Part shown: piece by piece, positions 4,030 through 28,360 of the stretch
Position numbering within the stretch: position 1 is the stretch's first letter
Layout of the letters: the number at the start of each line of letters is the position of its first letter
Assembly (NCBI RefSeq): GCF_000018105.1
Contig: NC_009925.1
Coordinates: 4,470,001-4,502,000, forward strand
Direction of reading: 5' to 3'
DNA: 32,000 bases
From: Acaryochloris marina MBIC11017
GTDB lineage: Bacteria > Cyanobacteriota > Cyanobacteriia > Thermosynechococcales > Thermosynechococcaceae
Made by a program: the position numbers and the translations under genes
The notes under the pieces: generated by a model
What the model was told of the DNA's origin: nothing
The model's database searches: none
What the model saw: the letters and a program-made list of their open reading frames with translations, nothing else

Positions 4030-4233
4030 AAATCTAAAGGAACAACTCGATTAATACGTATATCAATCATGCCCTGTCCTGACTGCTTTGTGCAGGGGCT
4101 AACTAATAATGCCTAAATGCTCAACCATTCACTTATTTATTCACAAAGGTAGTCTTGGAATACCTAGACGCTATTCTATATAAAATTTTCAATGTTTTAA
4201 TCTTGTAGCTTAGTAAATGCTCTACTACGAAAA

Positions 4234-4923: not shown

Positions 4924-5000
4924 TTACATTATGATTTCGGTGAAATTGTATCTACTTTAAACTCTAGGACTGTTTCAAGTTCACTAGAGCTAAATCAACT

Positions 5001-8485: not shown

Positions 8486-9811
8486 TCAGTCTCTAGAAAA
8501 TTGGTAAAAACTCTGTCCCTTTGGTTGCCTACTAGAAGCCACTGTGACCTTTGAAGCATGCTCAGGTGTAAACTCAACAGCCTGGGTATCAGAATGATCT
8601 AATTTGACTACAGGTCGATCTGATGGTGGCAGAATGTGGGTTGCCTTTAACTCAGGTACATAGGTTTCATAGGGATGAAAGGGCTTCAAAATTAGAAATG
8701 AATAAAAAGTTGAAGCCCCTAATAACGTCGGCCAAAAAATCAGTTTGGGAATGATGTTGTCTTCATAGGAAATGAACTTGAACTGGCTGGAATACTTATC
8801 ATGAGTAAATAAGTAGGCATCCACTGCCACCCCGAGTAAAGCCGTATACATGGCCAGATAGAAATACTCTATATAAATAATTCCAGATCCTGGAAACTCT
8901 TGCCGAATCTGAATATGGGCAATCAGCACAACGAAGAATAATGCTGAACATACCCCCAACACTCCAGAGGTATTGAAGCCAAAAATATCTGCTTGCCCTT
9001 CCCTAGCAGTGATAGTCAGCAATGTCGCAAACAATAAAATGGCTGAAATCAGCAGTGGAACTAAGTTGACAATAAAGGCCCCTAAAAATTCTCGTCTAAG
9101 CACAATATTGAAATAGAGTTCTGGTGTTTCTGGCAAGGGTTTGTCCAAGCCAAAATCCATATCATACCGGGGCGTTTTGAAGTCAAAAAATGTCTCTTCG
9201 ACTTTCCAATCCCCCAGCACAATACTTTTATCAAATCCAAAGGCATCTCCAGGTTGAGTGGACGAATAAGCCTTGAGATCGGGAACCAGGACGTTACTTC
9301 GACCAAAGTCTTTACCCCAAATTCGGATCCAAACGGTTTTGTGGTCTAGCGGGTATTTTTGATAGTTAAAGCGCTGCTTTAAGGTTGATTCAAAATACCA
9401 ACCAATCACCTCTTCTTGATCATTAATGTCACGTCGATAGGCTTGTTGGGGTTCTAGATTCTCACCCGAATCAACGGCTTCTGGCAATATAAACCCAACC
9501 GGCACGTCCTGGTCGGCAGGAATATCGGCAAAGACTGATTTATTATACTTCTGCCAAATATAGCCTGTGATATTTACTTCAGTAGCATTGTTGAACTTGA
9601 GAGACTGTAAAAAGACCCCTGTTGGAATCGCATCAGATTCTTTGAGGGATACCCCACGCTTTTTTAGGTGGGGAATAATCTCGCCTTCCTTTGCAAGCTG
9701 CTCTAAGTTGGGCTGATACGAATGATCAATCCGAAACCACATCAGACCAATCAGCACGATAAAGAAAATTGAGGTCCCTGAAGAAATCCACCACCAGCGT
9801 TTTGTATTCAT
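8486..9811 (-). CDS. Membrane protein resembling a prokaryotic pentameric ligand-gated ion channel (Cys-loop superfamily)
   Basis: The listed ORF starts at TTG 9820, and the in-frame ATG at 9811 (MNTKRWWW) is more likely. Layout is an N-terminal anchor, a ~215-aa extracytoplasmic domain and 4 TM helices. 'YQKYPLDHKTVWIRIW' matches the FPFDxQxxxLxF Cys-loop signature. Pre-M1 'IVLRREFLGAFIVNLVPLLISAILLF' carries the conserved Arg and M1 Pro. The post-M2 segment is 'EFPGSGIIYIEYFY'. Confidence 0.45.
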   Translation of the reverse strand: MNTKRWWWISSGTSIFFIVLIGLMWFRIDHSYQPNLEQLAKEGEIIPHLKKRGVSLKESDAIPTGVFLQSLKFNNATEVNITGYIWQKYNKSVFADIPADQDVPVGFILPEAVDSGENLEPQQAYRRDINDQEEVIGWYFESTLKQRFNYQKYPLDHKTVWIRIWGKDFGRSNVLVPDLKAYSSTQPGDAFGFDKSIVLGDWKVEETFFDFKTPRYDMDFGLDKPLPETPELYFNIVLRREFLGAFIVNLVPLLISAILLFATLLTITAREGQADIFGFNTSGVLGVCSALFFVVLIAHIQIRQEFPGSGIIYIEYFYLAMYTALLGVAVDAYLFTHDKYSSQFKFISYEDNIIPKLIFWPTLLGASTFYSFLILKPFHPYETYVPELKATHILPPSDRPVVKLDHSDTQAVEFTPEHASKVTVASSRQPKGQSFYQFSRD

Positions 9812-10000
9812 CACTTGCAACCGTTCAAGTTCAGTAGAATCGTGCCACTAAGCGGAAGTAACAGGAATTCTACTAAAGTCGAAGGGCTTGTATTGGCCTG
9901 GTGACGTTGAACGTGGCTTCCCAGTGCATCTAAAGTGCCAGTGAGCAGCCAATCTCAAAGGCTAGGAACTATGGGCCAGGGATTCTCCTCTTTCACGCAC

Positions 10001-10066: not shown

Positions 10067-11014
10067 TTAGAAGTTCATTTCGGCAGCTTGGACTTTCTCG
10101 ACTTGCTTCTTCTTTAGAACCAGAAGTGTTTGAGAAATCATAATGGCTGAGAAGAAGACCATCAACCACTTAATCCGAGTGCCACTCTGCAACACAATTT
10201 CGGTATCTTTTTGACCAAAACCACCCACATTGGGGTCAGAACTGAGGGGGGCACCATCAGCCACAGCCTGTCCTTCTGAGACCACAACTTCTAAACCAGC
10301 GGGAATCGACTCAGTGACGGTCTGACCATCATTAGTGGTGATGGTCACGGAATTTTCACTGACGCTGCTGACTAAACCGGCAGCAGGAGAAGTAACGGCA
10401 TTGACGTTCGTCTTGTCACCTGTGGGATAAATCTGACCACGCCCACGGTTACCACCTGCATGAACAGAGTATTTGCCAAAGTGGATATTGGGATCTGTTG
10501 CTGGGTCAGGAGAAAGGACGGGGAAGATAATTTCCTGGTGGTCAGCACCCGATAGAGGGCCGACGACGATTACATTATCCGTATCAGGCTTGTACTTCTG
10601 GTAAAAGACGCCGTTAATCTCTTCCTTCATCTTTTCAGGAATCCGATCATCGGGGGCAATTTGGAAGCCATCGGGCAGCATCAGAACTGCACCAACATTT
10701 AGAGGACCTAGGTCACCGCTACCTAGGACTTGCTGGGCATCCGTGTCATAAGGAATTTTGATAACGGCCTCAAACACTGTATCGGGTAGGACGGCCTGGG
10801 GGACTTCTACTTGGGTGGGCTTAGCTGCAAGGTGGCAGTTAGCACAAACAATACGACCGTTGGCTTCTCTAGGGCTATCGTAGGCTTGTTGAGCGTAGAT
10901 TGGAAAAGCCTGAGCAGCTTGGGGTAAGGAAAAGACGCTAGTGACGACAAGGAAGAGCGCAGCCAGGAGGCGAAGGCTCTTTTTCGTCAAGACGGATAAA
11001 AGGCTTTGCTTCAT
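10067..11014 (-). CDS. petA: Apocytochrome f
   Basis: Signal peptide followed by the mature N-terminus 'FPIYAQQAYDSPREANGRIVCANCHLA' (heme CxxCH), and a C-terminal TM anchor. ATG start. Confidence 0.97.
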   Translation of the reverse strand: MKQSLLSVLTKKSLRLLAALFLVVTSVFSLPQAAQAFPIYAQQAYDSPREANGRIVCANCHLAAKPTQVEVPQAVLPDTVFEAVIKIPYDTDAQQVLGSGDLGPLNVGAVLMLPDGFQIAPDDRIPEKMKEEINGVFYQKYKPDTDNVIVVGPLSGADHQEIIFPVLSPDPATDPNIHFGKYSVHAGGNRGRGQIYPTGDKTNVNAVTSPAAGLVSSVSENSVTITTNDGQTVTESIPAGLEVVVSEGQAVADGAPLSSDPNVGGFGQKDTEIVLQSGTRIKWLMVFFSAIMISQTLLVLKKKQVEKVQAAEMNF

Positions 11015-11087
11015 TAGTCTATCAATTGAAACCTGACAAGATGTGACGGGGCAGAAGGGATAAATCAGCTTAAACGTTCAAGGAAAC

Positions 11088-11627
11088 TTAGACCCACCAG
11101 GGATCCTTATCTGTACGGAAATCAGTTTCTGTCCAGGTTGTGAACACCAGCTTGCCATCTACATCTTCTGCATGAACGAGGGCCAAAGATAATGGTGCAG
11201 GCCCTCGCACCACCTTGCCGGTTGAATCATACTGTGACCCATGACAAGGGCAAATATATTTGTTTTGGCCTGCATTCCAGGGAACAACACAACCCAAGTG
11301 AGTACAGACCGCATTTAGACCATAGTCTGCGATCTCATTGCTATCTGTGACAACAACGTAGGTTGGATCTCCTTTGAAACCTTGGGTTAAAGTGCGGTCA
11401 CCCGGGCTATGTTCTGCCAAAAACTCACTGACCACAACGTCGTTACCAAGGGCGTCTTTGGCGTTCAGCCCACCCCCAGATCCTCCACTCGAAGGAGGAA
11501 TAAAGTACCTGACGACAGGGTATAACCCACCTAACGCGGTGCCGGTAATTGCACCAAAGGTCAGCAAATTCATAAATTGACGCCGCCCCATATCGGGGAC
11601 GTCAGAAGATCCAGAGACTTGAGCCAT
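11088..11627 (-). CDS. petC: Cytochrome b6f Rieske iron-sulfur subunit
   Basis: Tat-type 'RRQFMNLL' and Rieske boxes '[10 protein letters not shown]' and 'CPCHGSQY'. It lies directly upstream of petA. Confidence 0.97.
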
Positions 11628-11936: not shown

Positions 11937-12254
11937 ATGACCGGCGAAGAACTGCATCAACTCCTGATCAATAAATGGGGGCGGTCTTACGATATTCAGC
12001 TGCGCCGCACCCAAGGCAAAATCTTTGTTCAAGTCATGTGGCGCTATCTAGAACAAGCTTCATTTCCCATGTCAGAACCCGAATATTTTGAGCATTTAGG
12101 TGCGATCGCAACCTATATACGGGGGTGGGATGCGGTCCAGCAAGTCGAAGAATATATTCAAGCCACGAAACAAAGGCCCCGGTTGGGGAAAGCCGTCAGC
12201 ATCCCCCTAGAACTGGGTGGGAGGACCTCTGAATGGCTGCTGGAGCAGTTCTAG
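11937..12254 (+). CDS. Small conserved cyanobacterial/plastid-type protein (DUF3067-like)
   Basis: 105 aa with an ATG start. 'WGRSYDIQLRR...VQVMWRYLEQASFP' matches my recollection of the DUF3067 family. The family name is from memory only. Confidence 0.5.
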   Translation: MTGEELHQLLINKWGRSYDIQLRRTQGKIFVQVMWRYLEQASFPMSEPEYFEHLGAIATYIRGWDAVQQVEEYIQATKQRPRLGKAVSIPLELGGRTSEWLLEQF

Positions 12255-12260
12255 TCTCGA

Positions 12261-13046
12261 CTAGTGGCCCGTCAGTATGACTAAACCAATGCCCCCGAAA
12301 TAGAGGCCCACTACAGCGCCCCCCAGCAAGCTTTGGGTCAGGGGATCCGTTGAGGGGGTCAGTACTGCACCCAGGATGGCAGCGCCCAGAATCACGTATC
12401 GCCACCCAGACAACATTTGGCGACTGGATACAATGCCCGTGAGTCCTAATAGAAGCTGGATCACGGGAATCTGGAAAGCAATCCCCGTACTGAACAACAG
12501 CAGCAAGACGAATTCAAAGTAGCGATCAATCGACCAAAGCTGCTCAACCACATCTCCACCGTATTGGATGAAGAAATTGAGGGCTGCTGGAATCAGGGCC
12601 ACATAGGCAAATAAGATTCCCACAAAAAAGAGCACGGAGGAACCGAGGACAATCGGACCTAACAGCCGCCGTTCCGAACGGGTCAATCCCGGCAACACAA
12701 ACTGAATAATTTGGTACAGGATAAATGGGCTGGCTACCAGAATGCCGCTATAGGCAGCGACTTTGAGGGAGACAAAGAAGTATTCTCCAGGTGCGAGCTG
12801 CAGAAATTTAACCCCTTGAGCTGGGCGCTCTAAAACTTTGACGATTAAGTTGACCTTAAAGAAGCAACCGACGATTGCGATCGCAACCGCGATCAGCGCA
12901 TAAAAAATTCGAAAACGCAGTTCCTCTAAATGCTCGAACAATGACATTTCCACATCATTAAGCCCATCATCTGGCTGGATGTCGGCATCCGTTGGGGCCT
13001 TGGAGGGTGCTGTTTCTAGGTCAGAAGGAGTCACAGGCAAGCTCAA
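12261..13046 (-). CDS. tatC: Sec-independent (twin-arginine) protein translocase subunit TatC
   Basis: '[23 protein letters not shown]' plus six TM helices. The listed start is TTG, so the exact start is uncertain. N-terminal acidic extensions are typical of cyanobacterial TatC. Confidence 0.92.
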
Positions 13047-13167
13047 GCGATTAATTCAATCCCCATTATAGTTTTGTGAAGGGGAACGCTCCGGTTAATT
13101 CCGTAGTTGACGAATATCCAAATTTGCATAAGGTTAAAGTGAGTCACCCAGTAGTGAGAAATCAGCC

Positions 13168-13578
13168 ATGATTGATCGGCTATTACCTCTATTCGCTAGA
13201 GGGTTTCTATCGGCAGTTTTTATCCGTTCCGGCGTTGCTCACTGCTTCAATTTTGCAGGGACTCAACAAGCAATCACTAGCAAGGGGCTTCCTGCTGGTT
13301 TAGCCCTCATCATGGCCATTGGAGCGGTCTTATTGTTGCTGGGCGGGGGGCTATCTGTCCTATTTGGCTTGAAAGCGCGTTGGGGTGCGATCGCATTGAT
13401 CGTTTTTTTAGTGCCTGCGACGTTGATGTTCCATCTCAACCTGGCCGATCAAATGGAACAAATCCAGTTCTTCAAAAACATGAGTTTAATCGGTGGGCTT
13501 CTGCTCCTCGCTCAACACGGACCCGGTCGATACAGTTTTGATAATCAAGAACTGCGTCGGAGCTATGGAAAATGGTAG
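13168..13578 (+). CDS. DoxX-family membrane protein
   Basis: 136 aa with 4 hydrophobic helices. 'FLSAVFIRSGVAH' and 'MFHLN...FFKNMSLIGGLLLL' are typical of DoxX. Confidence 0.65.
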   Translation: MIDRLLPLFARGFLSAVFIRSGVAHCFNFAGTQQAITSKGLPAGLALIMAIGAVLLLLGGGLSVLFGLKARWGAIALIVFLVPATLMFHLNLADQMEQIQFFKNMSLIGGLLLLAQHGPGRYSFDNQELRRSYGKW

Positions 13579-13660
13579 GTTAAACTCGTGTAGAGACTGA
13601 GCGCTTCAATTCCCTCACCGTCCCATTCCCATTTTGTAACGACTGCATTAGGTCAAATCC

Positions 13661-14410
13661 ATGACCAAAGTTTCATCTCTCCCTCAAAACATATGGCATT
13701 GGTTTGCCGACCATGTGATTTCACCTGTGAGACACACACTCTTGTCTGACTTGGCGGCTAGCGTGTTGGTTCAACTGAAACAGTTTGTTCATCGCTGCTC
13801 TCAAGGGATTAGTCGGCAGGGACTAGGGGTTTGGGTCGTGGCCCTCACGGGTGCATTCTGCCTTATGGCTTGGAACGGGATGTTACTGATTGCTCTATCC
13901 ATAGGCATCGGGACAGCACTGCTCATCCAACAACAGCTGGCAACCCCACTCTTCGCATGGTCTGCCGTTGTCAAATGGTTATCTAGCTCTCACTCCACCA
14001 CTGTTATAGCTATTGCTGGTGGCCTATTGTCCTTAACTGCTAGTTATTTAACCTTGCAAATCTGGCAAGACACGAATAGCTTTGGACTCGCGTTCGCCAT
14101 TCTGTTGCAGGGACTAGGTTTGTTAGGGGTTCTTGGTCTCTTTGGCTGGCAACTCCTCAAGCAAGAAAAGGGGCATCCCCCCATCAGCCAACTTGATGGT
14201 TGGATCAATCATTTGACTGCCCTCGATCCACTCAAACGACTGATTGCCGTTCGGAGAATTTGTCACTATCTTGAATCATCCCCCTTCAATGATATTCAAG
14301 CCCAAGAAATACGAGAGTATTTACAGTTGCTGCAAGAGCAAGAGCAAACCCCCTCGATCCAGAAGGCGATCTCTCAGGGGTTAGAGATAATCGATTTCTC
14401 CTTACAGTAA
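13661..14410 (+). CDS. Hypothetical membrane protein with a soluble helical C-terminal domain
   Basis: 249 aa with an ATG start, about 4 TM helices and a helical tail ('LDPLKRLIAVRRICHYLE'). No recognised family. Confidence 0.5.
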   Translation: MTKVSSLPQNIWHWFADHVISPVRHTLLSDLAASVLVQLKQFVHRCSQGISRQGLGVWVVALTGAFCLMAWNGMLLIALSIGIGTALLIQQQLATPLFAWSAVVKWLSSSHSTTVIAIAGGLLSLTASYLTLQIWQDTNSFGLAFAILLQGLGLLGVLGLFGWQLLKQEKGHPPISQLDGWINHLTALDPLKRLIAVRRICHYLESSPFNDIQAQEIREYLQLLQEQEQTPSIQKAISQGLEIIDFSLQ

Positions 14411-14471
14411 GTTGCCACTGCCTGCAGCCACCCTATCTTTTCTCAGGGAGTAGCTGCAATCAAAATACACG

Positions 14472-15227
14472 CTATTTTGTAGCTGCAGGTGGCTCAGCCG
14501 CATTAGGATCCTTACAGGCTGGATTATAGCTATAGGCTGTTTTCCAATTACTGACTGTCTTCTTATTAATCGGAATCAAGATTTTATTGCCGTTGGAAAG
14601 AGTAAGTCGAGCCCGAGTTTCTTTGAGGGGGGCCTGAGACAGAAGACTGGCAATACCCGAATCAACCACAAAGATATTGCGCGTCATATACCAAGTACCG
14701 CTGGTTGTTTTATTCCCAAAGAAACTGGTATTTGTATAGTCTTGGGAAAAAACTTTTGGCTGAGATGCCGACTGAGGCGGTAGTTCAACCAGCTGACCGC
14801 CAATTCCAAGTTCTAGTAAAGTGGGTATGATTGCCGTGGGATCCACACGCCCTTGAGCGGGGGCATGTTGAATAATCATTTCTACAAAACAGCCTTCGAT
14901 TTTACTGCCCCATAGGGAGATAAATGCGCTGCGTCCTGGAGCTGGCTTACGGGAACGGCCGAAAATAGACCCGTCTAAGTCATTGCCAACAAGATGCCGA
15001 TCGGCGGTTACTTTGCCTAAGGGTGTATCAACTAAACTCTCTCGGATATCGACGGTTTTCTTAAAGGGGAGTTTTTTGCCTCCCCACTGCAATCCTTGAG
15101 TCGTGGTCAAATTATCTTCATAAATGGCGTCATCTTTTCCCGCTAGAGCGACATCTGCAGTCATTGAGCCAGCAAAAGTCAAGCTAACGGCGGTAAAACC
15201 TACAAGAGCTGATTTTTTTAAAGTCAT
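14472..15227 (-). CDS. Secreted hypothetical protein
   Basis: The listed ORF starts at TTG 15236, and the in-frame ATG at 15227 gives MTLKKSALVGFTAVSLTFAGSMTADVALA, a signal peptide. No recognised domain. It lies 56 nt (counting from the ATG) downstream of the S1 protease gene on the same strand. Confidence 0.55.
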   Translation of the reverse strand: MTLKKSALVGFTAVSLTFAGSMTADVALAGKDDAIYEDNLTTTQGLQWGGKKLPFKKTVDIRESLVDTPLGKVTADRHLVGNDLDGSIFGRSRKPAPGRSAFISLWGSKIEGCFVEMIIQHAPAQGRVDPTAIIPTLLELGIGGQLVELPPQSASQPKVFSQDYTNTSFFGNKTTSGTWYMTRNIFVVDSGIASLLSQAPLKETRARLTLSNGNKILIPINKKTVSNWKTAYSYNPACKDPNAAEPPAATK

Positions 15228-15282
15228 TTTGATCAATTAAGCGAGGTAGAGAGTTTTAAAAATCTATTGAATAACGGTAGAC

Positions 15283-16185
15283 CTAGCATCGACTGCCTGC
15301 ACAGACGGGAGATTGGCCAGTTCCTTTCGGACGAATCGGTTTGGGGCGTGAGGGGAGCCGTGGTGTTCCTGTCGGCGTCGTGGATGTGGGCTGGAAGCCA
15401 GGAGGTTGGACCGCAGGAGTTTGCTGTTGAGCGGTAGGCGTCGGCTTGGGAGTTGGCGGTTTAGCCGTGGGCTGGGCTTTAAAATCTAGTTTTATTCCCA
15501 CTTTGGGGGCGATAGATAAGAACGTTTTGATGGGAATTCCTAGGTTCAAACCTGCTTTCACTTGCACATCACCCTGGACATCCGTTTCTGCTCGACCATG
15601 GATACCCACTAATTCACCGTTGGTATTGAGGACAGGACCTCCACTCATGCCTTTACGGGTAATGTTGGTATAAATCAGGGAATATCCGTCTTTTGCTTTG
15701 GGATTGACCCCCGATACTTTGCCATCGGTAAATTGGAAAATCCGATTTTCAATCGCTTGGCCTGGATCGGGATAGCCAGCGGTATAGACCACTGAACCAA
15801 TTCCTGCTTCTTCGGACTTCGCTAGCTTGGCACTCATGTAGTTTTTATCGCTAGTAAAGGTCACCACTGCTAAATCAACACCGGGGAATTTCTTCACCGT
15901 TTGATATTTCACCGGATGTTTTTTCCCGTCTTGGGTGACAACATGATATTCAAAATCCGAATGTCTAACGACATGTTCTGCCGTTAGCACCGTATAGGTT
16001 TTATCTTTCTTGTTGATGATTACCCCAGACCCTGGATAATCACTAGCAATCAAAACAGTAAAATTCTTAGCACTTTTGCCAATTTGGCTAGATGGCAAAC
16101 TCAAAGCAACCTGCGTTTGTAGACAAACAACGCTTGCTGTCAGCATTCCACCCAAAACTACCGTTGGATTATTGTTAAAGCGCAT
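15283..16185 (-). CDS. Secreted trypsin-like (S1/chymotrypsin fold) serine protease with a Pro/Thr-rich C-terminal tail
   Basis: Signal peptide and a catalytic triad context of 'LTAEHVV' (His), 'VDLAVV' (Asp) and 'GMSGGPVL' (Ser). The tail is 'KPPTPKPTPTAQQQTPAVQPPGFQPTSTTPTGTPRLPSRPKPIRP' and ends in CAGSRC. Confidence 0.8.
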   Translation of the reverse strand: MRFNNNPTVVLGGMLTASVVCLQTQVALSLPSSQIGKSAKNFTVLIASDYPGSGVIINKKDKTYTVLTAEHVVRHSDFEYHVVTQDGKKHPVKYQTVKKFPGVDLAVVTFTSDKNYMSAKLAKSEEAGIGSVVYTAGYPDPGQAIENRIFQFTDGKVSGVNPKAKDGYSLIYTNITRKGMSGGPVLNTNGELVGIHGRAETDVQGDVQVKAGLNLGIPIKTFLSIAPKVGIKLDFKAQPTAKPPTPKPTPTAQQQTPAVQPPGFQPTSTTPTGTPRLPSRPKPIRPKGTGQSPVCAGSRC

Positions 16186-16380
16186 CGTTTTTGCCCACTT
16201 ACCTTAGAGAAATCATACTCAAGGTCTCCAAGAACTTCAATGATGATGCCTTCCTTAAGAAAAAACTGATCAAGGAAATGTCTCAATTTTCTGGACTTAA
16301 GATGACACTGCACCAACCTCTAACCCAAAGGATTTAGCAATCCACTTTTGGGTGAGTTTACTGAAAGTAGCATCACAATT

Positions 16381-17103
16381 ATGGACGAACGGTTTACGGT
16401 TGAGGTCATTTCCCACACCCCCAATCCCCAGCAGATTACCTATGCTGCCATGCATCAGGACTATGCTGAACAGTTGGTCGTGACGGATCGGAATCAATGG
16501 CCCGAAGAAGCGAAATGCGGAGAGTTGGTGATTAAGAATCTGCTCCAAGGCAATCGTGGACATTATGGCCCCCTGGAGCATCCTCAAATCGTGCTCAACT
16601 TTGGCTATTTCCCCCACAGCACCATGCAACAAATGCGGACCCATCGAAATGTATCTTTCGATGTGCAGTCCTTCCGATACACAGGGCAACGAATTTTAGA
16701 TGTGGTAGCTGGCACCCAAGAACTAGAAGATGTTTTCTACTTGCGTCCTGTGGGCACCTACACCAATCGCCAGGGTAAAAAGTATGACTATAGTCTGGAG
16801 CAACGCCAGCAAGATGTAGACTGGTGCCGCCAGGCCTGCCAACGCTATGCCGAAAGAATTGACCAGGGATTAGCAGAAGAGCATGCTCGGGGACTTATTC
16901 CCTTTGATGTCCGCCAGCATTGGGTGATGAGCGCGAATGCTCGATCCCTGATGCATCTACTAGATATTCGCGGTAAGTACGATGTCCAGATGGAAACGCG
17001 GGTGATGACGGAGCTGATGTTTACTCAGTTTCAGCAGTGGATGCCAGAGGTGGCTGCTTGGTATGAGAAGACCCGCTGGCGCAAGGGACCTTTAGCCCCC
17101 TAA
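16381..17103 (+). CDS. thyX: FAD-dependent thymidylate synthase ThyX
   Basis: ThyX motif 'THRNVSFDVQSFRY' (RHRxxSxxxxSxRY type). The listed ORF starts at TTG 16348, and the ATG at 16381 (MDERFTVEVI) is the likely start. Confidence 0.9.
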   Translation: MDERFTVEVISHTPNPQQITYAAMHQDYAEQLVVTDRNQWPEEAKCGELVIKNLLQGNRGHYGPLEHPQIVLNFGYFPHSTMQQMRTHRNVSFDVQSFRYTGQRILDVVAGTQELEDVFYLRPVGTYTNRQGKKYDYSLEQRQQDVDWCRQACQRYAERIDQGLAEEHARGLIPFDVRQHWVMSANARSLMHLLDIRGKYDVQMETRVMTELMFTQFQQWMPEVAAWYEKTRWRKGPLAP

Positions 17104-17177
17104 TGATCGTCAACTGGATCTTGTTGCATGGTCCCATGTACAACGGTGCTATTGATTCCCCCAGTGAAAGGTCCTCC

Positions 17178-18413
17178 ATGTCTAAGGTTCATGTGCAAGT
17201 GTTGCGGATGGTGGGAGTTGCGATCGCAACTCCAATCCTGACCTTATCCACCGCCGAAGCCAAGCTAGAAAACAGTCACAAGGCGCTGGTTGATCAAGCC
17301 TGGCAAATCGTTCAGGAAGAATATGTCGACCGCACCTTCAATCAGCAGGATTGGCAAGAAGTCCGCCAAGACTATTTAAGTCGTTCCTATACCTCCAAGC
17401 AGGACGCCTACGTCGCTGTCAGCAAAATGGTCAGGAAGCTGCAAGATCCTTACACCCGCTTTCTCACCCCCGATGGCATCAAGGATCTCGTCGATAATGT
17501 GTCAGGTGGATTTATTGGTGTGGGTGTCACCGTCTCCCTTGATCCCTTAACCCGAGAGTGGCAGGTGATCGAAACTGTAGCGGACTCTCCTGCTGATGCG
17601 GCTGGCATTCAACCTCAAGATATTGTCGTCAGCATCAACGGCACCCCGACCTCAGAGATTAACCCCCGTCAGGCCAGCGAATATATCATTGGTGCCGTGG
17701 GGAGTAAGGTCACCGTCCAGATTCGCCGAGGCAAAGAATTTTCCCGCTATAAGCTGGTGCGGGAGAAGATTGATGTCAATCCCTTGGTCTATGAAGTGCA
17801 GGAAACGTCGAAAGGGAAAGTCGGCTATATTCGGATGCCGGTTTTCACCACCAAATCGGCAAAAGCGATGAAAACAGCCCTGACGGATTTAGAGAAGCAA
17901 CAGGTCAAAGGGTATGTCCTTGATCTACGCCAAAACCCTGGCGGCGTCTTTGATGCCAGTATTGACATTGCCCGCATGTGGATGGGAAAAGACCGCTTAA
18001 TTTCTAGTGTGGATGAAAAAGGTAAAAAACAAGACTTTTTTGCCTATGGCCCCGTCTTGACCAACAAACCCCTGGTGATTTTGATCGATGAAAAATCCGC
18101 CAGCGCCAGTGAAGTGTTAGCTGCTGCGCTCCAAGATCACAAACGGGCTCAGCTCGTCGGCACCCCTACGTTTGGTAAAGGGGTGGTTCAAGTCCTCAAA
18201 AGTCTTGAAGATGGCTCTGGATTGGTGGTCACCGTCGCGAAGTACTATACGCCCAAGGGTAAGAATATTAACCAGATTGGTATCAAGCCTAATATTTTTG
18301 TCAAAAGTGAGGAAGGCAAACCTTTTAAGCCGCAACCTGGCCAGGTTTTACCACCGGAATCCGATCCTCAATATACTCGGGGGCTCAAGGTCCTAACGAA
18401 AAAGTTGAAATAG
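17178..18413 (+). CDS. Carboxyl-terminal processing protease (S41 family, CtpA/B/C-type) with a PDZ domain
   Basis: PDZ 'GGFIGVGV' and catalytic Ser/Lys context 'DEKSASASEVLAAAL...TFGKGVVQ'. The in-frame ATG at 17178 gives MSKVHVQVLRMVGVAIATPILTLSTAEA, a signal peptide, which is preferred over the listed 17103 start. Confidence 0.88.
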   Translation: MSKVHVQVLRMVGVAIATPILTLSTAEAKLENSHKALVDQAWQIVQEEYVDRTFNQQDWQEVRQDYLSRSYTSKQDAYVAVSKMVRKLQDPYTRFLTPDGIKDLVDNVSGGFIGVGVTVSLDPLTREWQVIETVADSPADAAGIQPQDIVVSINGTPTSEINPRQASEYIIGAVGSKVTVQIRRGKEFSRYKLVREKIDVNPLVYEVQETSKGKVGYIRMPVFTTKSAKAMKTALTDLEKQQVKGYVLDLRQNPGGVFDASIDIARMWMGKDRLISSVDEKGKKQDFFAYGPVLTNKPLVILIDEKSASASEVLAAALQDHKRAQLVGTPTFGKGVVQVLKSLEDGSGLVVTVAKYYTPKGKNINQIGIKPNIFVKSEEGKPFKPQPGQVLPPESDPQYTRGLKVLTKKLK

Positions 18414-22046: not shown

Positions 22047-22683
22047 GGGTGAAATCTTGGTGGGCACAATCGAACCTTTACTGCGCAAATAAGGTCAAAG
22101 AAGTAGATTATAAGGTGAAGCTCCTTTATTTAGGTTACACATTTTTTCAGATTGATCAGACACTAAAACAACCGCTAGTGAAAGAAAAAAGTGCCTGGAG
22201 GTCAAAACTCGAGAAAACGGAATTGTTGGGCTGAACGAAGACGTTCGAATTTATACGAAAATAGAATAAAAGGACTGCAAATCCGTAATTTCACCGATTT
22301 AGCCGCATCGATGAATATGTAATCCTAGTAAATATTATTTACAAAAAAATATTTTTTCATTGTTTGCATAACCAGGCTTCTTAGACTTTAAAATGCGGCT
22401 CAAAAGTGAATATTCAAATCCAGTGAGTGATGCTTTGCATATACGACTTATGGGTATTCTGCTAAACGTGTGTTTTCCACAGACAAAATCTGCATCATTA
22501 AATCTGCCTGATGAGTAGAATCGAACTTTAAAAAGGGGCATTCTTTAGATAGACAAAGTTCTCTGCACGGTTCGCGATTCCAGAGGACACTTGTTGGCTT
22601 ATCAGTCTTAGGTCCATTTGAGCCTTTGCTAAGTAACGAATGCCCATTCGTCATTGAAATTACATAAAAAAGGGTTAGTCTCA

Positions 22684-23397
22684 ATGGTTTTTACACCAGC
22701 TGAAACCGCTACCAGTGTGCCTGTAGGTAATACTGGTCGTTCATTCAAGCAATCGTACCCTCACAAGCTAAATCACTACCGCTTTGAGGATTTCTTTACC
22801 TTCAATCATTCAAAAGGCACTATCGATGATTGGCATGAATCTCGCAATATTCTGGCGAGTGAAGATTTTATTGTGGCCCTGATCGAAGGTTTAGAACAGG
22901 AAGTCGGTAGTGCTTCAACGGTCGTGATGTATAACATCGGCCAAGAGTGGGGCAAGCAAGATGCGGTCTTTTTCCAAAATTGGTTTGAAGCCCAATTCCA
23001 ACAATCTCTGCGCAAATGCCGCCCCTCTCTTGCTTTAGAAGCCTGGTGGTGGCCCTTTACTAGCCAAGGCTGGGGAAACTGGGAAGTTGATTTGGATAAT
23101 CAGCAAAACGGTTTTATGTTTATCAACATTTTCGATTCTGCGGTTGCTCGCACCCTTGGAGATGTCGGCAAGCCCGTCTGCCATATCTATGCAGGTTTAT
23201 TCGCCGGTTTCTTCTCCCACCTCGTGAATAAAGAACTGAGCTGTATCGAAACCCAATGCTATGCCATGGGAGAAACCTACTGTAAGTTTTTGCTGGGTAA
23301 ACAAGATCGCATTGATGCCGCCACCTTTTGGCAAAACGAAGGAGCTACAGCCCGAGATATTGAAACTAAGCTGCAGGGTGGAGAATATCTATCGTGA
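22684..23397 (+). CDS. V4R (4-vinyl reductase / BchJ-like) domain protein, paralog 1
   Basis: The ATG at 22684 is preferred over the listed TTG at 22654. C-terminal V4R signature 'PVCHIYAGLFAGFFSHLVNKELSCIETQCYAMGETYCKFLLG' (C..aG...G....E..C...G...C.F). The N-terminal part 'RNILASEDFIVALIEGLEQEVGSASTVVMYNIGQEWGK' is as in BchJ/XylR-N type proteins. Confidence 0.75.
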   Translation: MVFTPAETATSVPVGNTGRSFKQSYPHKLNHYRFEDFFTFNHSKGTIDDWHESRNILASEDFIVALIEGLEQEVGSASTVVMYNIGQEWGKQDAVFFQNWFEAQFQQSLRKCRPSLALEAWWWPFTSQGWGNWEVDLDNQQNGFMFINIFDSAVARTLGDVGKPVCHIYAGLFAGFFSHLVNKELSCIETQCYAMGETYCKFLLGKQDRIDAATFWQNEGATARDIETKLQGGEYLS

Positions 23398-23747
23398 ATA
23401 GTTGGAAATATCTAACAGTTCGTGAGTTCTTAGAAGGATATAACTGGTCAGGAGAATCCATTCTCCAAGCTGACCCTATCCCTGAGGCAAGTGAGTCTAT
23501 TGCGTGGCAACGTCAGACGGTCCAGACATTTTTCAGTCAATTCAATTGGACAGGACGCCTGATAGAGAAACCAATGATGGTTGCTACCGCTCCATCCTTC
23601 TCTACACGTTTAAATGTGCAGGCATTTTTTCAGCATTTTATCTGGGAGGGGCAACCTAATATTGCAGCGATGCCCAGCATTCCCTCATCATCCCCAATCA
23701 CCCTTGAGGATGATCTGAATCTAAATGACTTCTCCGATATGTTTTGA
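23394..23747 (+). CDS. Small protein with a triple Trp-containing repeat (V-x-x-F-F/L-x-x-F/Y-N/I-W-x-G)
   Basis: The GTG start overlaps the upstream stop (GTGA), and GGTGGAG lies 10 nt upstream. The repeats are 'VREFLEGYNWSG' (aa 9-20), 'VQTFFSQFNWTG' (43-54) and 'VQAFFQHFIWEG' (75-86). The tail is acidic. Confidence 0.6.
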   Translation: MNSWKYLTVREFLEGYNWSGESILQADPIPEASESIAWQRQTVQTFFSQFNWTGRLIEKPMMVATAPSFSTRLNVQAFFQHFIWEGQPNIAAMPSIPSSSPITLEDDLNLNDFSDMF

Positions 23748-23755
23748 GGATTACC

Positions 23756-24241
23756 ATGCAATCGAACTTTGAAGATTATCTGCGGGCCGCAGAAGATCAC
23801 TACTTACAGACCCCAGAAATGAACGGTTTCAAACAGCAGGTCGATGCTTTGCAAGATCGACTGGCCCTTTATGAAACCTTACGAGATCAAGAACTGATTA
23901 TTTTTCAGGCCATTGCCGATCAGTTAAACAAGGAGACCTTCTCTAATTCCCAATCTGATCAGGAGAAGGTGTTTACCCACTGGATGTCGGTGTTGCGCTA
24001 TAGCGCCATGGCCATGCTCACGGATCAACCTCAAACCCTTACCATCCAACTGAGCTGGCTGAAGGATGTGGTTGGTGACAGTGAATTTACTGCCCTCCAC
24101 CAGAAGATCAGTGAGCTGCTGCACGCGAGTTTGAGTTCTGTCTTATCGGAGAGCCAACTTGCCTCGCTTGAGCCATTTTTAACGGAGGCAAATCGCACTC
24201 TGGTCGGCCAAAGCAGCCCCGAATTAGCAATGTTGAGTTAA
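23756..24241 (+). CDS. Phycobiliprotein-fold (globin-like, PF00502-type) protein lacking the chromophore Cys
   Basis: ATG at 23756 with TGAGGA 5 nt upstream (the listed TTG at 23744 is rejected). It is 161 aa and all-helical. 'AAEDHYLQTPEMNGFKQQVDALQDRLALYETLRDQELIIFQAIADQL' aligns with the phycobiliprotein X-Y-A-B helices. The Cys-x-Arg-Asp position reads F-T-H-W. Confidence 0.55.
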   Translation: MQSNFEDYLRAAEDHYLQTPEMNGFKQQVDALQDRLALYETLRDQELIIFQAIADQLNKETFSNSQSDQEKVFTHWMSVLRYSAMAMLTDQPQTLTIQLSWLKDVVGDSEFTALHQKISELLHASLSSVLSESQLASLEPFLTEANRTLVGQSSPELAMLS

Positions 24242-24259
24242 TGACCAGAGGAAATAAAT

Positions 24260-24931
24260 ATGATTGCTGTTGAAGAATTAATTGGTCAAAACCACATCCC
24301 AGGTAATTTCTTTGCCCCTGAAGTCTATGTGCAAGGAGATACCGAACTAGGGCTAATCGAGAATCGGGAAGGATCTCGCCTCATTGCCCTTCCGGACACC
24401 CTACTCAAATCTTTATACAGTAGCTTAGAACATGAGGTCGGTCCTGCTGCCGATTTAGTTCTACTGCAATGTGGTCGTTGGTGGGGCAAGAATTTTTACC
24501 GCCGATTTGCATCAGAAGTCAGCGACTACTATGGAAAGCCCTTGGCAGAGATGGAAATGGTGGAATTCCTACAGTCCTTTAAGGAATGCTGGAAAACCTA
24601 TGGCTGGGGCCTAATCGATTTTGATTTTAGTCACCACCACCAAGGATTTTTGGTGATCACGACCCAGAATTCGGCGTTCGCCCAGGGCCGGGAAACAGGA
24701 GATAAGCCGTCTTGCTTCGTCGAAAGGGGGCTCCTGAGTACCTTTTTTAGCCAACTGACTGGCCGAGAGTTAGACGGCGTGCAAACATCCTGTGAGTCAA
24801 TGCAAGCCGATTGCAATCGCTTTATTCTAGGCCTACCTGAGCGCATGAAAGCAGCTGAAGCTTGGGTCAAAGAAGCTCAGGATCATGACACTATCCTTGC
24901 TCGGTTATGTGATAGCCAAGCTACAGGGTAA
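24260..24931 (+). CDS. V4R (4-vinyl reductase / BchJ-like) domain protein, paralog 2
   Basis: ATG with AGAGGA upstream. 'PSCFVERGLLSTFFSQLTGRELDGVQTSCESMQADCNRFILG' is a V4R signature. N-terminal 'SRLIALPDTLLKSLYSSLEHEVGPAADLVLLQCGRWWGK' parallels paralog 1. Confidence 0.75.
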   Translation: MIAVEELIGQNHIPGNFFAPEVYVQGDTELGLIENREGSRLIALPDTLLKSLYSSLEHEVGPAADLVLLQCGRWWGKNFYRRFASEVSDYYGKPLAEMEMVEFLQSFKECWKTYGWGLIDFDFSHHHQGFLVITTQNSAFAQGRETGDKPSCFVERGLLSTFFSQLTGRELDGVQTSCESMQADCNRFILGLPERMKAAEAWVKEAQDHDTILARLCDSQATG

Positions 24932-24979
24932 ACCAATGTTGATGCAGTTGATGAGTATTCCACTTTGGAGAAGTAAGCA

Positions 24980-25462
24980 ATGGCCAAAATAGTTAGGTTA
25001 GATCCGATTGGTCAAGAAACAAGCGTGCCGACCAACGATAACTTGCTGTCAGCATTGCTTAAGAACGAGTTGAAAGTCCTCCATGAATGTGGCGGACGTG
25101 GGATGTGTGCAACCTGCCATATTTTCATTAAGGATGGCATGGAGCATTTATCTCCCATGAGTCGCCGAGAACGGCGGACTTTAGGGGTGATCACGACCTG
25201 CAAACTGAATTCTCGCCTCGCTTGTCAAAGCAAAGTCATGGGGGAAGGCGTCGTAGTTGAACTCCCGGCGGGTATGTACCTCAGTGATGTCAGTGACATC
25301 GAGAGCTTAATCGGACGTCGAGCGGAAGAGAATATCCTTCATCCTCTGGATGGTCGGGTCTTAGTTGAAGCTGGAAAGCTGATTACCCGGTCCATGATCA
25401 GCCAACTGGAAGAAACTCGCAGTGATGTGTCCACTCACTTAGCTAATTCACAACTTGTATAA
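24980..25462 (+). CDS. 2Fe-2S ferredoxin-domain protein with a ~70-aa C-terminal extension
   Basis: Cluster ligands 'CGGRGMCATCH' (C-x5-C-x2-C) plus 'LACQ' about 35 residues later. The ferredoxin domain covers about aa 1-95. I do not recognise the rest, 'SDVSDIESLIGRRAEENILHPLDGRVLVEAGKLITRSMISQLEE'. Confidence 0.8.
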   Translation: MAKIVRLDPIGQETSVPTNDNLLSALLKNELKVLHECGGRGMCATCHIFIKDGMEHLSPMSRRERRTLGVITTCKLNSRLACQSKVMGEGVVVELPAGMYLSDVSDIESLIGRRAEENILHPLDGRVLVEAGKLITRSMISQLEETRSDVSTHLANSQLV

Positions 25463-25489
25463 CAACAGATTTTATCTGGGGGAAATAAT

Positions 25490-25957
25490 ATGCTGTCACA
25501 ATTGAAGCGACTGAATATTGAAACAGATGGTCGCTATGCCACTGAGGCAGATCTAGCCTTTTTGAAGTCCTACTTGCAATCCGTGCGCGACCGTATTAGC
25601 GCCTATGAAAAGATTAGAGATGCTGAAGATGCAATTACGGATCAAGCAGACGAAGTTTTAATGGCTGCAGATCCCAAGGTTTTTCATAAGGGGTCGCAGG
25701 ATTATTCCGAAACGTGTCGCCGAGATCGCAGAAACACATTGCGTCATGCCGCAGCAGCCATGCTATTTAACGATTTAGACCGCCTGCGAGATGGCCTCCT
25801 ACTCTGGCAAAGAACCATTGTACATGCCGTCAAGGATGAGCAGGCCTCTGCCCTGACTTGGCAAGAGATGCCGGGGGTATTGAAAGACCATCTATCCGAT
25901 GAGGAAGCAGAGTTAATGATGCCTGCGCTCCGCCTCAATCAGGCCTTATTAAATTAA
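25490..25957 (+). CDS. Phycobiliprotein-fold protein retaining the Cys-x-Arg-Asp bilin-attachment motif
   Basis: 155 aa. 'ETDGRYATEADLAFLKSYL' matches 'DAEARYLSPGELDRIKAFV' of ApcA. 'SETCRRDRRNTLRHAAAAML' matches '[20 protein letters not shown]'. Cys76 (codon 25715-25717) aligns with chromophore Cys81/84, and Arg78-Asp79 align with the bilin-contacting Arg/Asp. Confidence 0.6.
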   Translation: MLSQLKRLNIETDGRYATEADLAFLKSYLQSVRDRISAYEKIRDAEDAITDQADEVLMAADPKVFHKGSQDYSETCRRDRRNTLRHAAAAMLFNDLDRLRDGLLLWQRTIVHAVKDEQASALTWQEMPGVLKDHLSDEEAELMMPALRLNQALLN

Positions 25958-26002
25958 TCATTACAGAACCATTATTGAGCGTTTTTAGGGTTTCTAGAAA
26001 TT

Positions 26003-27019
26003 ATGTCAGCCTCACAAAATACACCCGGGAGTAACAGTAGCTCCCATTGGCTTGATCTTGCTGAATCATTGGCGGTTATTGCCGCCATCAGTGGCTCGGT
26101 AGCCGCCATCGTCGTAGAACAAATCGCTGTTGCTTCGATCCCTTTGGCCCTATCTGCCACCCTAGGACTGGCCAATCGTCGACGTCAAATTGGCGCATTC
26201 CAAGATCAACAACGGATGGAAATGGCGCATTTGCTCCAACAGAACCAAGCGGATTTCCAAGCTCAGTTAGACCCAATTAAGCAGGCCAGTGAAGGGGTAC
26301 AGTCTCAAATTGAGCATCTCACCAAGCAGGATACTCAAACCGTACAAACGATTGCCACCCTCAATACTCAGACTGAAAAACTAGAATCAACTATTGCATC
26401 CCTGCAAAACAATCACAAGCAAGGGGAAGCAACAGTCATCTCCTTGGGTGAGCAAAGCCAAGCCACTCAAGCCCAGATGGAGGAGTTGGCAACTCAGGTG
26501 CAAACCATACAAGCTGCGATTGCAGAACTGCAATCTTCGGCTACAGACCTAGGAAGTCAGGTGGAAGATCAAAAGAGTAGTGCCCAATATCTCGCGGCTC
26601 AGACAGAAGGGGTTGAAGAACTGGTTGATATCCTGCGAGAGATTGATGCCCTCACCCAAACCATTTCAGCCCATCCCAACGTGGCCAAGCATTTCTTTGA
26701 TCGAGGGATGACCCGTAAGCGCCTGCAGCGACTTGAGGATCAGCGCGTAGCCATGGAAGATTTTTCCCAAGCTATCCGCTTAGAGCCCACCTTCGCCCAT
26801 GCCTACTATGAGCGTGGGTTACTGAAATCTGAATTTGGTCATAAACAGCATGCTGTCGATGATTTGCGCACCGCGGCTAAGTTCTATTTTGATCAAGGGG
26901 ACTTAACCCAGTACGAGAAGGCCCGAGAGTTGAGTCAAGAGATTCACGACCTAATTGCCGGGTCTCCCTCCCCAGAAGAGGAAACCGAACAGTTCTTGAT
27001 CGAGAACCTGTTCGGTTAA
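26003..27019 (+). CDS. Membrane-anchored coiled-coil protein with C-terminal TPR repeats
   Basis: The N-terminal hydrophobic hairpin is 'LAESLAVIAAISGSVAAIVVEQIAVASIPLALSATLGLA'. A ~150-aa Gln/Thr-rich heptad region follows ('QTVQTIATLNTQTEKLESTIASLQ...'). The C-terminus has TPR-like repeats ('AMEDFSQAIRLEPTFAHAYYERGLLKSEFGHKQHAVDDLRTAAKFY'). Confidence 0.65.
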   Translation: MSASQNTPGSNSSSHWLDLAESLAVIAAISGSVAAIVVEQIAVASIPLALSATLGLANRRRQIGAFQDQQRMEMAHLLQQNQADFQAQLDPIKQASEGVQSQIEHLTKQDTQTVQTIATLNTQTEKLESTIASLQNNHKQGEATVISLGEQSQATQAQMEELATQVQTIQAAIAELQSSATDLGSQVEDQKSSAQYLAAQTEGVEELVDILREIDALTQTISAHPNVAKHFFDRGMTRKRLQRLEDQRVAMEDFSQAIRLEPTFAHAYYERGLLKSEFGHKQHAVDDLRTAAKFYFDQGDLTQYEKARELSQEIHDLIAGSPSPEEETEQFLIENLFG

Positions 27020-27048
27020 AGCCAACGCTTTTATCTCTAAACATCCAT

Positions 27049-27080
27049 TGCCCGTAGCGCTGATTTTACTGCTGCGGGCA
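27049..27080 (+). terminator. Hairpin terminator candidate downstream of the seven-gene operon
   Basis: 10-bp stem TGCCCGTAGC / GCTGCGGGCA (one G-U pair) with a 12-nt loop, followed by GTGTGTTG. It lies 30 nt after the 26003..27019 stop, between convergent genes. Confidence 0.5.
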
Positions 27081-27099
27081 GTGTGTTGAGCAACCCTCA

Positions 27100-27664: not shown

Positions 27665-28240
27665 TTAGCGTCCCATATTTCGCTTTAATTCTTCAAATTC
27701 GGCATCCCGTTCCCAGTTCTTAAATTGTTCTTCCAAGGGATCCGGATCACTCAGAGAGATCCGCTTATACCAACCTTTCGAGGGATCGGACGGTTGTTTT
27801 GATGAGGGATTGGGCTGAGGCTTCCGAGGGGTTTGCTTAATTTTTTCCTTTACCTCCTTTTGACGAATTTGAATTTTTTCTAGCAATGCCTGGGTTTGCT
27901 GGAGGCGTGTTTTGGTCACTTCCATTTGTCCCCACTGCTGGTTCCCTTGACTGAGCAATGAGGCTTCTCGTTCTTTGGCGGCAGTGGCTAAGTCCTGGCG
28001 TCCGGCTCGCTCCGCTTTCTTCACACGCTCATGCCAGCGCTGAATTTCATTGGCAGTGGCTAAAATAGCGTCTTGTTGGCGTTTTTCTTCCGCTTGTAGA
28101 TCAGTCAGTAACTTCATCGTTTTGACTTCTTGCTCGCGGATATTATCAGCAAGAACCTGTAACTCCAGGTGTGGATGGGCTCGGAGAAATTCTTCGAGCT
28201 GTTTTTCGAGAAAGCGGCTTACATCATCAAACACGTTCAT
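27665..28240 (-). CDS. Coiled-coil protein with PspA/IM30-like features
   Basis: The ATG at 28240 (MNVFDDVSRFLEKQ) is preferred over the listed TTG at 28246. 'NEIQRWHERVKKAERAGRQDLATAAKEREA' parallels Vipp1/PspA 'NEINKWQRNAQLALQKGDENLARQALERK'. The basic/Pro-rich tail ends in 'WERDAEFEELKRNMG'. Confidence 0.4.
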   Translation of the reverse strand: MNVFDDVSRFLEKQLEEFLRAHPHLELQVLADNIREQEVKTMKLLTDLQAEEKRQQDAILATANEIQRWHERVKKAERAGRQDLATAAKEREASLLSQGNQQWGQMEVTKTRLQQTQALLEKIQIRQKEVKEKIKQTPRKPQPNPSSKQPSDPSKGWYKRISLSDPDPLEEQFKNWERDAEFEELKRNMGR

Positions 28241-28360
28241 CGTCAAAGCCTCAGTAACATCTGGCTTGAGTCCACTGTTCTGAGTGTGTCATATTTTCTC
28301 AGCGGTGGTCAGCTCCCTTCAGCATTCCCTTTTGATGTCTTTCGTCCTGCAGCAACAGGG

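Follow-up and report, generated by a model that had tools for sequence, protein, structure and literature searches.

The stretch of the Acaryochloris marina MBIC11017 chromosome studied here (NC_009925.1, positions 4,470,001 to 4,502,000; 32,000 nucleotides, hereafter the window) carries, at 22684-27019, a compact cluster of seven genes, designated g1 to g7. These encode two V4R proteins, a small protein with a tryptophan-containing motif, two phycobiliprotein-like globins, a ferredoxin, and a membrane-anchored protein (Table 1). All seven open reading frames (ORFs) lie on the forward strand and are separated by spacers of -4, 8, 18, 48, 27, and 45 nt, as an earlier note on this DNA, made without database searches, had described them. 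That note also reported purine-rich Shine-Dalgarno (SD) sequences before most of the genes. SD-like sequences of this kind do precede g2 to g6, and the one ahead of g1 is weaker. Genes with housekeeping and photosynthesis functions surround the cluster (alaS, petC-petA, tatC, an S41 peptidase gene, lrgAB, and ilvA). We conclude that this is an unremarkable chromosomal copy of a cluster already known and that its combination of seven genes is not new.

Table 1. Genes and other features of the seven-gene locus, in window coordinates
Feature	Length	Position	Strand	Basis
g1: V4R clade-A protein (Slr0144 type)	237 aa	22684..23397	+	Pfam V4R
g2: small Trp-motif protein (Slr0145 type)	117 aa	23394..23747	+	repeats, position
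g3: Cys-less phycobiliprotein-like globin (Slr0146 type)	161 aa	23756..24241	+	ortholog profile
g4: V4R clade-B protein (Slr0147 type)	223 aa	24260..24931	+	Pfam V4R
g5: adrenodoxin/ISC-type [2Fe-2S] ferredoxin (Fed5/Slr0148 type)	160 aa	24980..25462	+	Fer2
g6: BBAG-type phycobiliprotein paralog (Slr0149 type)	155 aa	25490..25957	+	PF00502
g7: membrane-anchored coiled-coil/TPR protein (Slr0151 type)	338 aa	26003..27019	+	hydrophobic segment, TPR matches
up1: conserved upstream neighbor, no Pfam/NCBIfam family	224 aa	21414..22088	-	recurs near V4R-A
AT-rich divergent intergenic region	595 bp	22089..22683		composition, alignment
Stable hairpin between convergent g7 and DUF302 gene		27046..27083		folding energy

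Correspondence with the pap cluster of Synechocystis

The suggestion in the earlier note that these parts had not been described in combination is wrong, because the cluster matches a characterized system, a finding that the note itself had listed among the grounds for giving up its claim. The system in question is the named and partly characterized pap operon (slr0144-slr0151/0152) of Synechocystis. The comparison was made with the corresponding locus of Synechocystis sp. LKSZ1, which was reached through a profile of Fed4-like ferredoxins and serves here as a proxy for strain PCC 6803. Its genes run in the order V4R (241 aa), a 125-aa protein, a 168-aa protein, V4R (221 aa), Fer2 (160 aa), Phycobilisome (167 aa), Fer2 (103 aa), TPR (313 aa), and Pkinase (627 aa). 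Each of the seven window products finds its best match in the LKSZ1 gene of the same position, over essentially the full length, with identities from 63% for g1 at one end of the cluster to 29% for g7 at the other.

The pairwise matches also tell the two V4R proteins apart. g1 aligns over the full length of the 241-aa protein and is only 24% identical to the 221-aa one, whereas g4 is 52% identical to the 221-aa protein over its full length and 28% identical to the clade-A protein of 241 aa. Identities are 31% (1.5e-12) between g2 and the 125-aa protein, 41% between g3 and the 168-aa protein, 66% between g5 and the 160-aa ferredoxin encoded between V4R-B and the second globin, and 45% between g6 and the 167-aa protein. 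The match of g7 to the 313-aa TPR protein (6.7e-30) covers aa 1-317 of 338, and g7 differs from this pap-type protein in having a longer Q-rich coiled-coil region. In addition, translations of Slr0151 primers, HLFNRKQ (aa 62) and the C-terminal TAANLFG, match LANRRRQ and IENLFG in g7. Judging from sequence, it is highly likely that the locus is the ortholog of slr0144-slr0149 plus slr0151, i.e., a minimal version of what has been called the "pap" operon, "cluster e*," or the cyanobacterial cluster of globins associated with bilin biosynthesis (BBAGs).

Searches for the PCC 6803 proteins themselves, BAA18544-BAA18551, were negative. Relatives of g1 were sought in one genome per species, which gave matches in 427 genomes, and the locus counts reported below refer to the best 80 of these 427. 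PCC 6803 was neither among these best 80 loci nor among the best 120 protein matches. A published slr0151 primer had no match in metagenome contigs, and a protein search with a Chroococcales TPR ortholog gave 26 matches, none of them from Synechocystis.

As published, the PCC 6803 operon (slr0144-slr0152) has the order and domain content of g1 to g7 (V4R-A, small protein, Cys-less globin, V4R-B, Fed5, BBAG, and TPR), but it also includes Fed4 (slr0150) between slr0149 and slr0151 and the kinase SpkG (slr0152; PMC11863333) downstream, both of which are lacking here. No Fed4-like match was found in the window, where only the 45-nt spacer separates g6 and g7, and no kinase match was obtained across the window at 1e-8. 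Among the related loci, a Fed4-like plant-type ferredoxin of ~106 aa lies between g6 and g7 exactly in those of the Chroococcales/Pleurocapsales type; the closest relatives of the window have none. The remark in the earlier note that the locus has no kinase holds for the window but not for the family, in which some 30 related loci have a gene for a SpkG-like Ser/Thr kinase immediately after g7, the arrangement of variant e'. Such a gene is present neither in the window nor in the three closest loci, whereas Partensky et al. report a slr0152 homolog nearby in RCC1774.

The cluster was named in 2008, catalogued across cyanobacteria in 2014, recognized in Acaryochloris in 2018, and traced to its evolutionary origin in 2023. 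"Cluster e" was catalogued by Cassier-Chauvat and Chauvat (2014), who designated the Fed4-less variant "e*" and placed three of the five fed5 copies of A. marina MBIC11017 in it (PMC4284462). The published e* arrangement (4VRa, ApcB-like, 4VRb, ferredoxin, ApcA-like, and TPR genes, with no Fed4) is the one found in the window. In Acaryochloris spp., homologs of slr0144-0149 and slr0151-0152 surround a misannotated "apcA" (Partensky et al. 2018, PMC6002478). Rockwell et al. (2023, PMC10151467) traced the Fe-S, V4R, and globin proteins of cyanobacteria to pre-PcyA bilin biosynthesis clusters of nonphotosynthetic bacteria, and the study of pre-PcyA-type clusters continues (PMC13446030). These clusters, which comprise heme oxygenase (HO), ferredoxin-dependent bilin reductase (FDBR), Fe-S, V4R-A, V4R-B, and BBAG genes, have the core set with a CXRD globin in common with the window. 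In contrast, no HO or FDBR gene lies within the window, and the cyanobacterial clusters have in addition the Slr0145-type protein, a further globin that lacks Cys, and the TPR membrane protein.

All of the best 80 loci are cyanobacterial, and the closest come from Acaryochloris metagenome-assembled genomes (MAGs), in which g1 is 86-91% identical to the window protein; over the 80 loci, g1 identity is 62-91%. Gene order was counted in the 62 loci that extend far enough, and g1 to g7 are collinear on a single strand in 60 of them. The comparison of gene neighborhoods proposed in the earlier note finds the genes to be syntenic and not scattered. An ortholog of g7 likewise follows g6 in 60 of the 62 loci, in a sample that is biased toward the closest relatives of g1. 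This linkage argues for one functional unit over chance adjacency, and it appears to be somewhat at odds with the remark of Rockwell et al. that the adjacent genes are often absent.

Two Thermosynechococcaceae MAGs hold two loci each (L005 and L009 in JBHJNL01; L007 and L008 in JBAUJD01). The clusters are complete in L008 and L009 and near-complete in L005, and L007 is a truncated contig. The paired loci point to duplication of the cluster, which fits published reports for Acaryochloris. Extra DNA lies between the V4R-B and ferredoxin genes in some loci, amounting to 5.6 kb in L037 (~12250-18050) and 1-2 kb in L005 and L006.

Properties of the encoded proteins

The domain calls of the earlier note were borne out by Pfam for V4R, Fer2, and PF00502 and, in the case of g3, by an ortholog profile and by paralogy to g6. 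PCC 6803 has no V4R proteins other than Slr0144 and Slr0147 (PMC13326532), and their counterparts in the window match Pfam V4R at 2.5e-23 (g1) and 2.1e-11 (g4). An AlphaFold2 (AF2) model of g1 was of moderate quality (predicted local distance difference test [pLDDT] score, 71; predicted template modeling [pTM] score, 0.72). In Foldseek, it matched the phenol sensor domains of PoxR, MopR, and DmpR over ~200 residues (TM score, 0.5-0.62; E, 8e-6 to 2e-4) and more distantly resembled Bet3/TRAPP and MJ_1460. The g1 residues C166, E189, C192, and C200 are invariant and align with the C/E/C/C positions of MopR and PoxR (C-x22-E-x2-C-x7-C), which we take to be the zinc ligands of MopR.

One might instead read the V4R proteins as sensors of ligands, comparable to those of XylR/DmpR/MopR or MsvR, with the cluster serving as a regulatory module. 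The superposition of the g1 model on the PoxR/MopR/DmpR sensor domains and the C/E/C/C motif that they have in common would be in keeping with this, as would the Ser/Thr kinase gene that follows the cluster in many genomes and the requirement of SpkG for Fed5 phosphorylation in Synechocystis (PMC11863333). However, whereas MopR, PoxR, and DmpR, whose V4R-containing sensor fold g1 appears to share according to the model, carry sigma-54 AAA+ and DNA-binding (helix-turn-helix [HTH]) output domains, Pfam and NCBIfam give a V4R match alone for g1 and g4, with no AAA+, HTH, or other output domain fused to either. Sequence identity to these sensors is only 16-22%, the MsvR and MobR NCBIfam scores are far under cutoff (MobR, 12.8 bits versus 999), and the window has no kinase gene. 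A regulatory module is contradicted by these results and seems very unlikely.

BchJ (bacteriochlorophyll 4-vinyl reductase, TIGR02019) was rejected as an assignment for g1, which scored 25.7 bits against a cutoff of 74.3 and matched in the V4R segment only; g4 gave no TIGR02019 match in NCBIfam.

Of the two globins, g6 is recognized as a Phycobilisome protein by Pfam (PF00502, 6.5e-15). g3 alone stays under the PF00502 threshold (0.0029; 18 bits versus a cutoff of 22.2) and has no NCBIfam match. The earlier description of two phycobiliprotein-fold proteins holds because the g3 ortholog profile matches allophycocyanin/phycocyanin (ApcB/CpcB) chains in the PDB (6.9e-6) and aligns with the g6 family, the two families being paralogs (hhalign probability, 99.4%; E, 5.8e-21). 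Allophycocyanins are matched by the g6 profile (3e-10), and in the alignment the g6 Cys falls on the chromophore Cys in TCLRD. In g6 the CXRD motif reads C76-R-R-D79, and among 70 aligned g6 orthologs, counting those of the window and LKSZ1, 46 have the Cys, 59 the Arg, and 69 the Asp. g3 has no Cys at all; its near-invariant W76 and R81, in an H-W-containing stretch, face the CxRD of the g6 family in the hhalign alignment. The product of slr0149 is a phycobiliprotein paralog of the BBAG type, and the related BBAG-1 and BBAG-3 bind bilins through CXRD (PMC10151467).

If g3 and g6 were divergent light-harvesting allophycocyanin subunits, the cluster would be a variant antenna operon. What speaks for this are the PF00502 matches, clear for g6 and weak for g3, the allophycocyanin chains among the best PDB matches, the globin-like fold family in common with ApcA/ApcB/CpcB, the alignment of the g6 Cys-x-Arg-Asp with their chromophore site, and the annotation of the g6 homolog as apcA in some Acaryochloris genomes. 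That annotation, however, was explicitly rejected by Partensky et al. (2018, PMC6002478), and slr0149-type globins fall phylogenetically outside the light-harvesting clade, with BBAGs being weakly fluorescent (PMC10151467). Moreover, the NCBIfam scores of g6 are far under the equivalog cutoffs (25.5 versus 270 bits for ApcA and 22.7 versus 228 bits for ApcB), the lack of Cys in g3 sets it apart from light-harvesting phycobiliproteins, and no phycobilisome linker or lyase genes occur within the window, as the earlier note had observed for the locus. An antenna function is contradicted by this evidence and hardly credible.

The ferredoxin g5 matches Fer2 (Pfam, 7.3e-11) and fdx_isc-like (NCBIfam), and in the PDB it is matched best by E. 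coli Fdx (1I7H) and by putidaredoxin. Its Synechocystis counterpart, Fed5 (slr0148), has been classed as adrenodoxin-like and Fed4 (slr0150) as plant-type (PMC4284462). The cluster-binding Cys residues of g5 and its C-terminal extension are conserved in 68 orthologs. This extension past Fer2, of ~60 aa, includes at aa ~100-145 (25277-25414) the sequence IGRRAE.NILHP...LVEAGKLITRSM and has no family assignment.

Only g7 among the cluster products has a hydrophobic segment (aa 18-54; Kyte-Doolittle score over 19 residues [KD19], 2.05). It is followed by a Q/A/T/E-rich helical middle part and then by sub-threshold Pfam TPR matches at aa 239-293. Slr0151 is a TPR protein of 320 aa whose N-terminal region (aa 1-61) has been described as transmembrane (PMC4853703), and it interacts with CP43 and D1 and is needed in photosystem II (PSII) repair according to Yang 2014, as cited in PMC4853703.

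The small protein g2 contains three V-x-x-F-[FL]-x-x-[YF]-[NI]-W-x-G repeats and ends in the tail ...LNLNDFSDMF. It has no Pfam or NCBIfam match, and its single-sequence AF2 model was uninformative (pLDDT, 37). The GTG start codon of g2 lies in the stop of g1 (GTGA), and this 4-nt overlap is found in nearly all loci. The g2-family tail, L-x-L-x-[DN]-[LF]-S-[DQ]-L-F-COOH (23703-23744 in the window), occurs in 74 of the 80 loci, with near-variants in 2 more, and g7 orthologs share a conserved ...[VL]xxLF near the C terminus (26999-27016 in the window). EEVD tails are known to dock into TPR domains of Hsp70/90 co-chaperones, and the tail of g2 and the LF end of g7 may be a shared docking motif, perhaps for a TPR domain.

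Proposed function of the cluster and alternatives

In Synechocystis, the genes form a single transcriptional unit, TU2264 (PMC4195498), and Slr0144 to Slr0149 cofractionate and copurify with tagged Slr0149, with interactions validated by affinity purification-mass spectrometry (PMC9880817). The operon was named pap, for photosystem II assembly protein, by Wegener (2008), who, as cited in PMC4853703, reported that it stabilizes PSII intermediates and that its proteins are found with PSII preparations and respond to the loss of lumenal PSII subunits. The pap genes are listed as PSII assembly factors, and their deletion lowers PSII activity (PMC9145668).

Based on these orthologs and on the anatomy of the window genes, the following mechanism seems most likely. 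The seven genes would be cotranscribed, with V4R-A and the small Trp-motif protein translationally coupled. Their soluble products, i.e., the V4R pair, the CXRD globin, its Cys-less paralog, and the dedicated adrenodoxin-type ferredoxin, would form one complex. Within it, the V4R pair would bind a small hydrophobic ligand in a MopR/PoxR-like pocket, and g6 would bind a bilin via C76, perhaps as one half of an alpha/beta-like dimer with the Cys-less g3. The Slr0151-type TPR protein is predicted to hold the complex at the thylakoid membrane. The complex would act at PSII assembly sites, probably by binding or redox processing of a bilin or other tetrapyrrole, with the ferredoxin supplying electrons.

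The earlier note had proposed a membrane-tethered, cofactor-binding complex that includes the ferredoxin. This agrees with work on the Synechocystis orthologs (PMC9880817, PMC4853703, PMC10151467), and overall the observation made in that note is confirmed and its interpretation partly supported. More speculative, and in our view rather unlikely, is an extension of the mechanism in which g2 would be an adaptor, its tail docking in the TPR domain of g7 and tethering the V4R/globin/ferredoxin complex at sites of PSII assembly, with up1 as an undescribed eighth component.

A number of points weigh against assembly at PSII as the function of this locus, beginning with the orthology itself, which was drawn from the LKSZ1 proxy strain, two primer-derived Slr0151 fragments, and published descriptions, and not from PCC 6803 proteins. 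The basis for an operon in A. marina is the tight spacing and the conserved overlap, whereas the transcript, the complex, and the PSII phenotype are known from Synechocystis only, and consensus scans found no forward-strand promoter before g1 and no canonical terminator after g7. Among the g6 orthologs, Cys is missing in about one third, and no cyanobacterial BBAG is known to bind bilin. Fed4 and Fed5 are dispensable in Synechocystis, in which Δfed4 and Δfed5 mutants have no iron or oxidative stress phenotype (PMC4284462). The function of the operon is also contested in the literature: a role in photosystem I (PSI) was proposed first (Singh 2004, as cited in PMC4853703), and the PSII phenotypes may stem from slr0150-slr0152 instead of the V4R/globin/Fe-S core (Rockwell et al., PMC10151467).

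The last of these points is also an argument for reading the cluster as a bilin-handling or bilin-sensing module left from an ancestral bilin cluster. Its link to PSII would then be indirect, for instance through control of tetrapyrrole flux, or the PSII phenotypes would come from the TPR protein only. The descent of the Fe-S, V4R, and globin proteins from pre-PcyA clusters and the bilin binding of BBAG-1 and BBAG-3, both from the work of Rockwell et al., fit such a module, and so do the alignment of the g6 CXRD with the phycobiliprotein chromophore Cys and the nature of g5, a ferredoxin of the type that would probably feed a heme oxygenase or bilin reductase. Against it stand the near-constant joining of the TPR gene to the core, the presence of operon proteins in PSII preparations and their response to lumenal subunit loss as reported by Wegener in the account cited above, and the lack of HO and FDBR genes in the window. 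We consider this explanation possible, if somewhat doubtful.

The early PSI proposal has its own basis, as the cluster first came to attention through its down-regulation under iron depletion and oxidative stress, a context in which a part in PSI assembly was suggested (Singh 2004, as cited in PMC4853703). Slr0151 was subsequently detected together with PSI complexes (Kubota 2010, as cited in the same paper), and fed4 and fed5 are down-regulated under low iron, cadmium, and high light (PMC4284462). The cluster would, on these grounds, be an accessory system that is regulated by iron and oxidants, includes two Fe-S-dependent steps, and serves PSI or iron/redox homeostasis. Later genetics and interaction data, however, favor PSII (interaction with CP43 and D1 and a defect in D1 replacement; PMC4853703, PMC9145668), and the lack of iron and oxidative stress phenotypes in the ferredoxin mutants noted above speaks against a role in iron or redox homeostasis. 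We find a PSI or iron-related function unlikely.

We retain a complex acting in PSII assembly as the preferred reading. The overlap of the V4R-A and small-protein genes, the g2 tail, the linkage of the TPR gene to the core, and the recurrent upstream gene offer handles for pull-down experiments and mutagenesis, and they leave the classification of the cluster unchanged.

Flanking elements and other features of the window

Upstream of g1, the earlier note had described an AT-rich leader of about 600 bp. The region is AT-rich, with 36.3% GC compared to 47.7% for the window, but it is more than a leader: it separates g1 from a divergently oriented gene, the conserved up1, which that note had missed, and is thus a divergent intergenic region. 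Alignment with the closest Acaryochloris loci (L001 to L003) shows that the blocks at 22132-22143 (AGGTTACACATT), 22533-22558 (AAGGGGCATTCTTTAGATAGACAAAG), and 22642-22655 (GCCCATTCGTCATT) are kept, and the SD region of g1 is likewise conserved among these relatives. The blocks are candidate promoter, operator, or 5' untranslated region elements. When the upstream region was inspected by eye for an RpaB-type HLR1 repeat, only poor matches were seen.

Homologs of up1 lie directly upstream of the V4R-A gene in 32 of the 80 loci. In those of the Acaryochloridaceae/Thermosynechococcaceae type they are divergent and of full length, whereas in those of the Pleurocapsales/Chroococcales type they are codirectional, and what they share is confined to the C-terminal ~95 aa, which follow pentapeptide repeats. 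No homolog of the up1 domain was found in the LKSZ1 locus. It is possible that up1 corresponds to the gene labeled "ho" in the published "cluster e."

Downstream of the cluster, the hairpin noticed earlier after g7 is real. Its core stem (27046-27059 paired with 27070-27083) has a folding energy of -26.5 kcal/mol (z = -4.72), and none of 200 shuffled sequences was as stable. The consensus terminator scan did not list it because no T-run follows. It lies between convergent genes and is a possible bidirectional terminator. Beyond the DUF302 gene, which separates it from the cluster, a reverse-strand gene at 27665-28246 encodes a member of TIGR04376 (3.3e-74), a family of hypothetical proteins with a relationship to TIGR04375, the "hercynine metabolism protein"; L002 and L003 have a syntenic homolog of this gene.

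Elsewhere, an Rfam scan and a tRNA scan of the window gave no matches. A reverse-strand ORF of 444 aa at 8486-9820, with no Pfam or NCBIfam family, adjoins petA/petC (10067-11627). The stretch at 4001-5000 is low in GC (32-34% versus 48%) and contains an ORF of 229 aa (4234-4923) without a Pfam or NCBIfam match; it may represent foreign or fast-evolving DNA. Finally, a forward-strand ORF of 157 aa at 914-1387 has a weak Pfam match to TIMP (tissue inhibitor of metalloproteinase; 1.6e-5, barely over the gathering score), which is unusual for a cyanobacterium.

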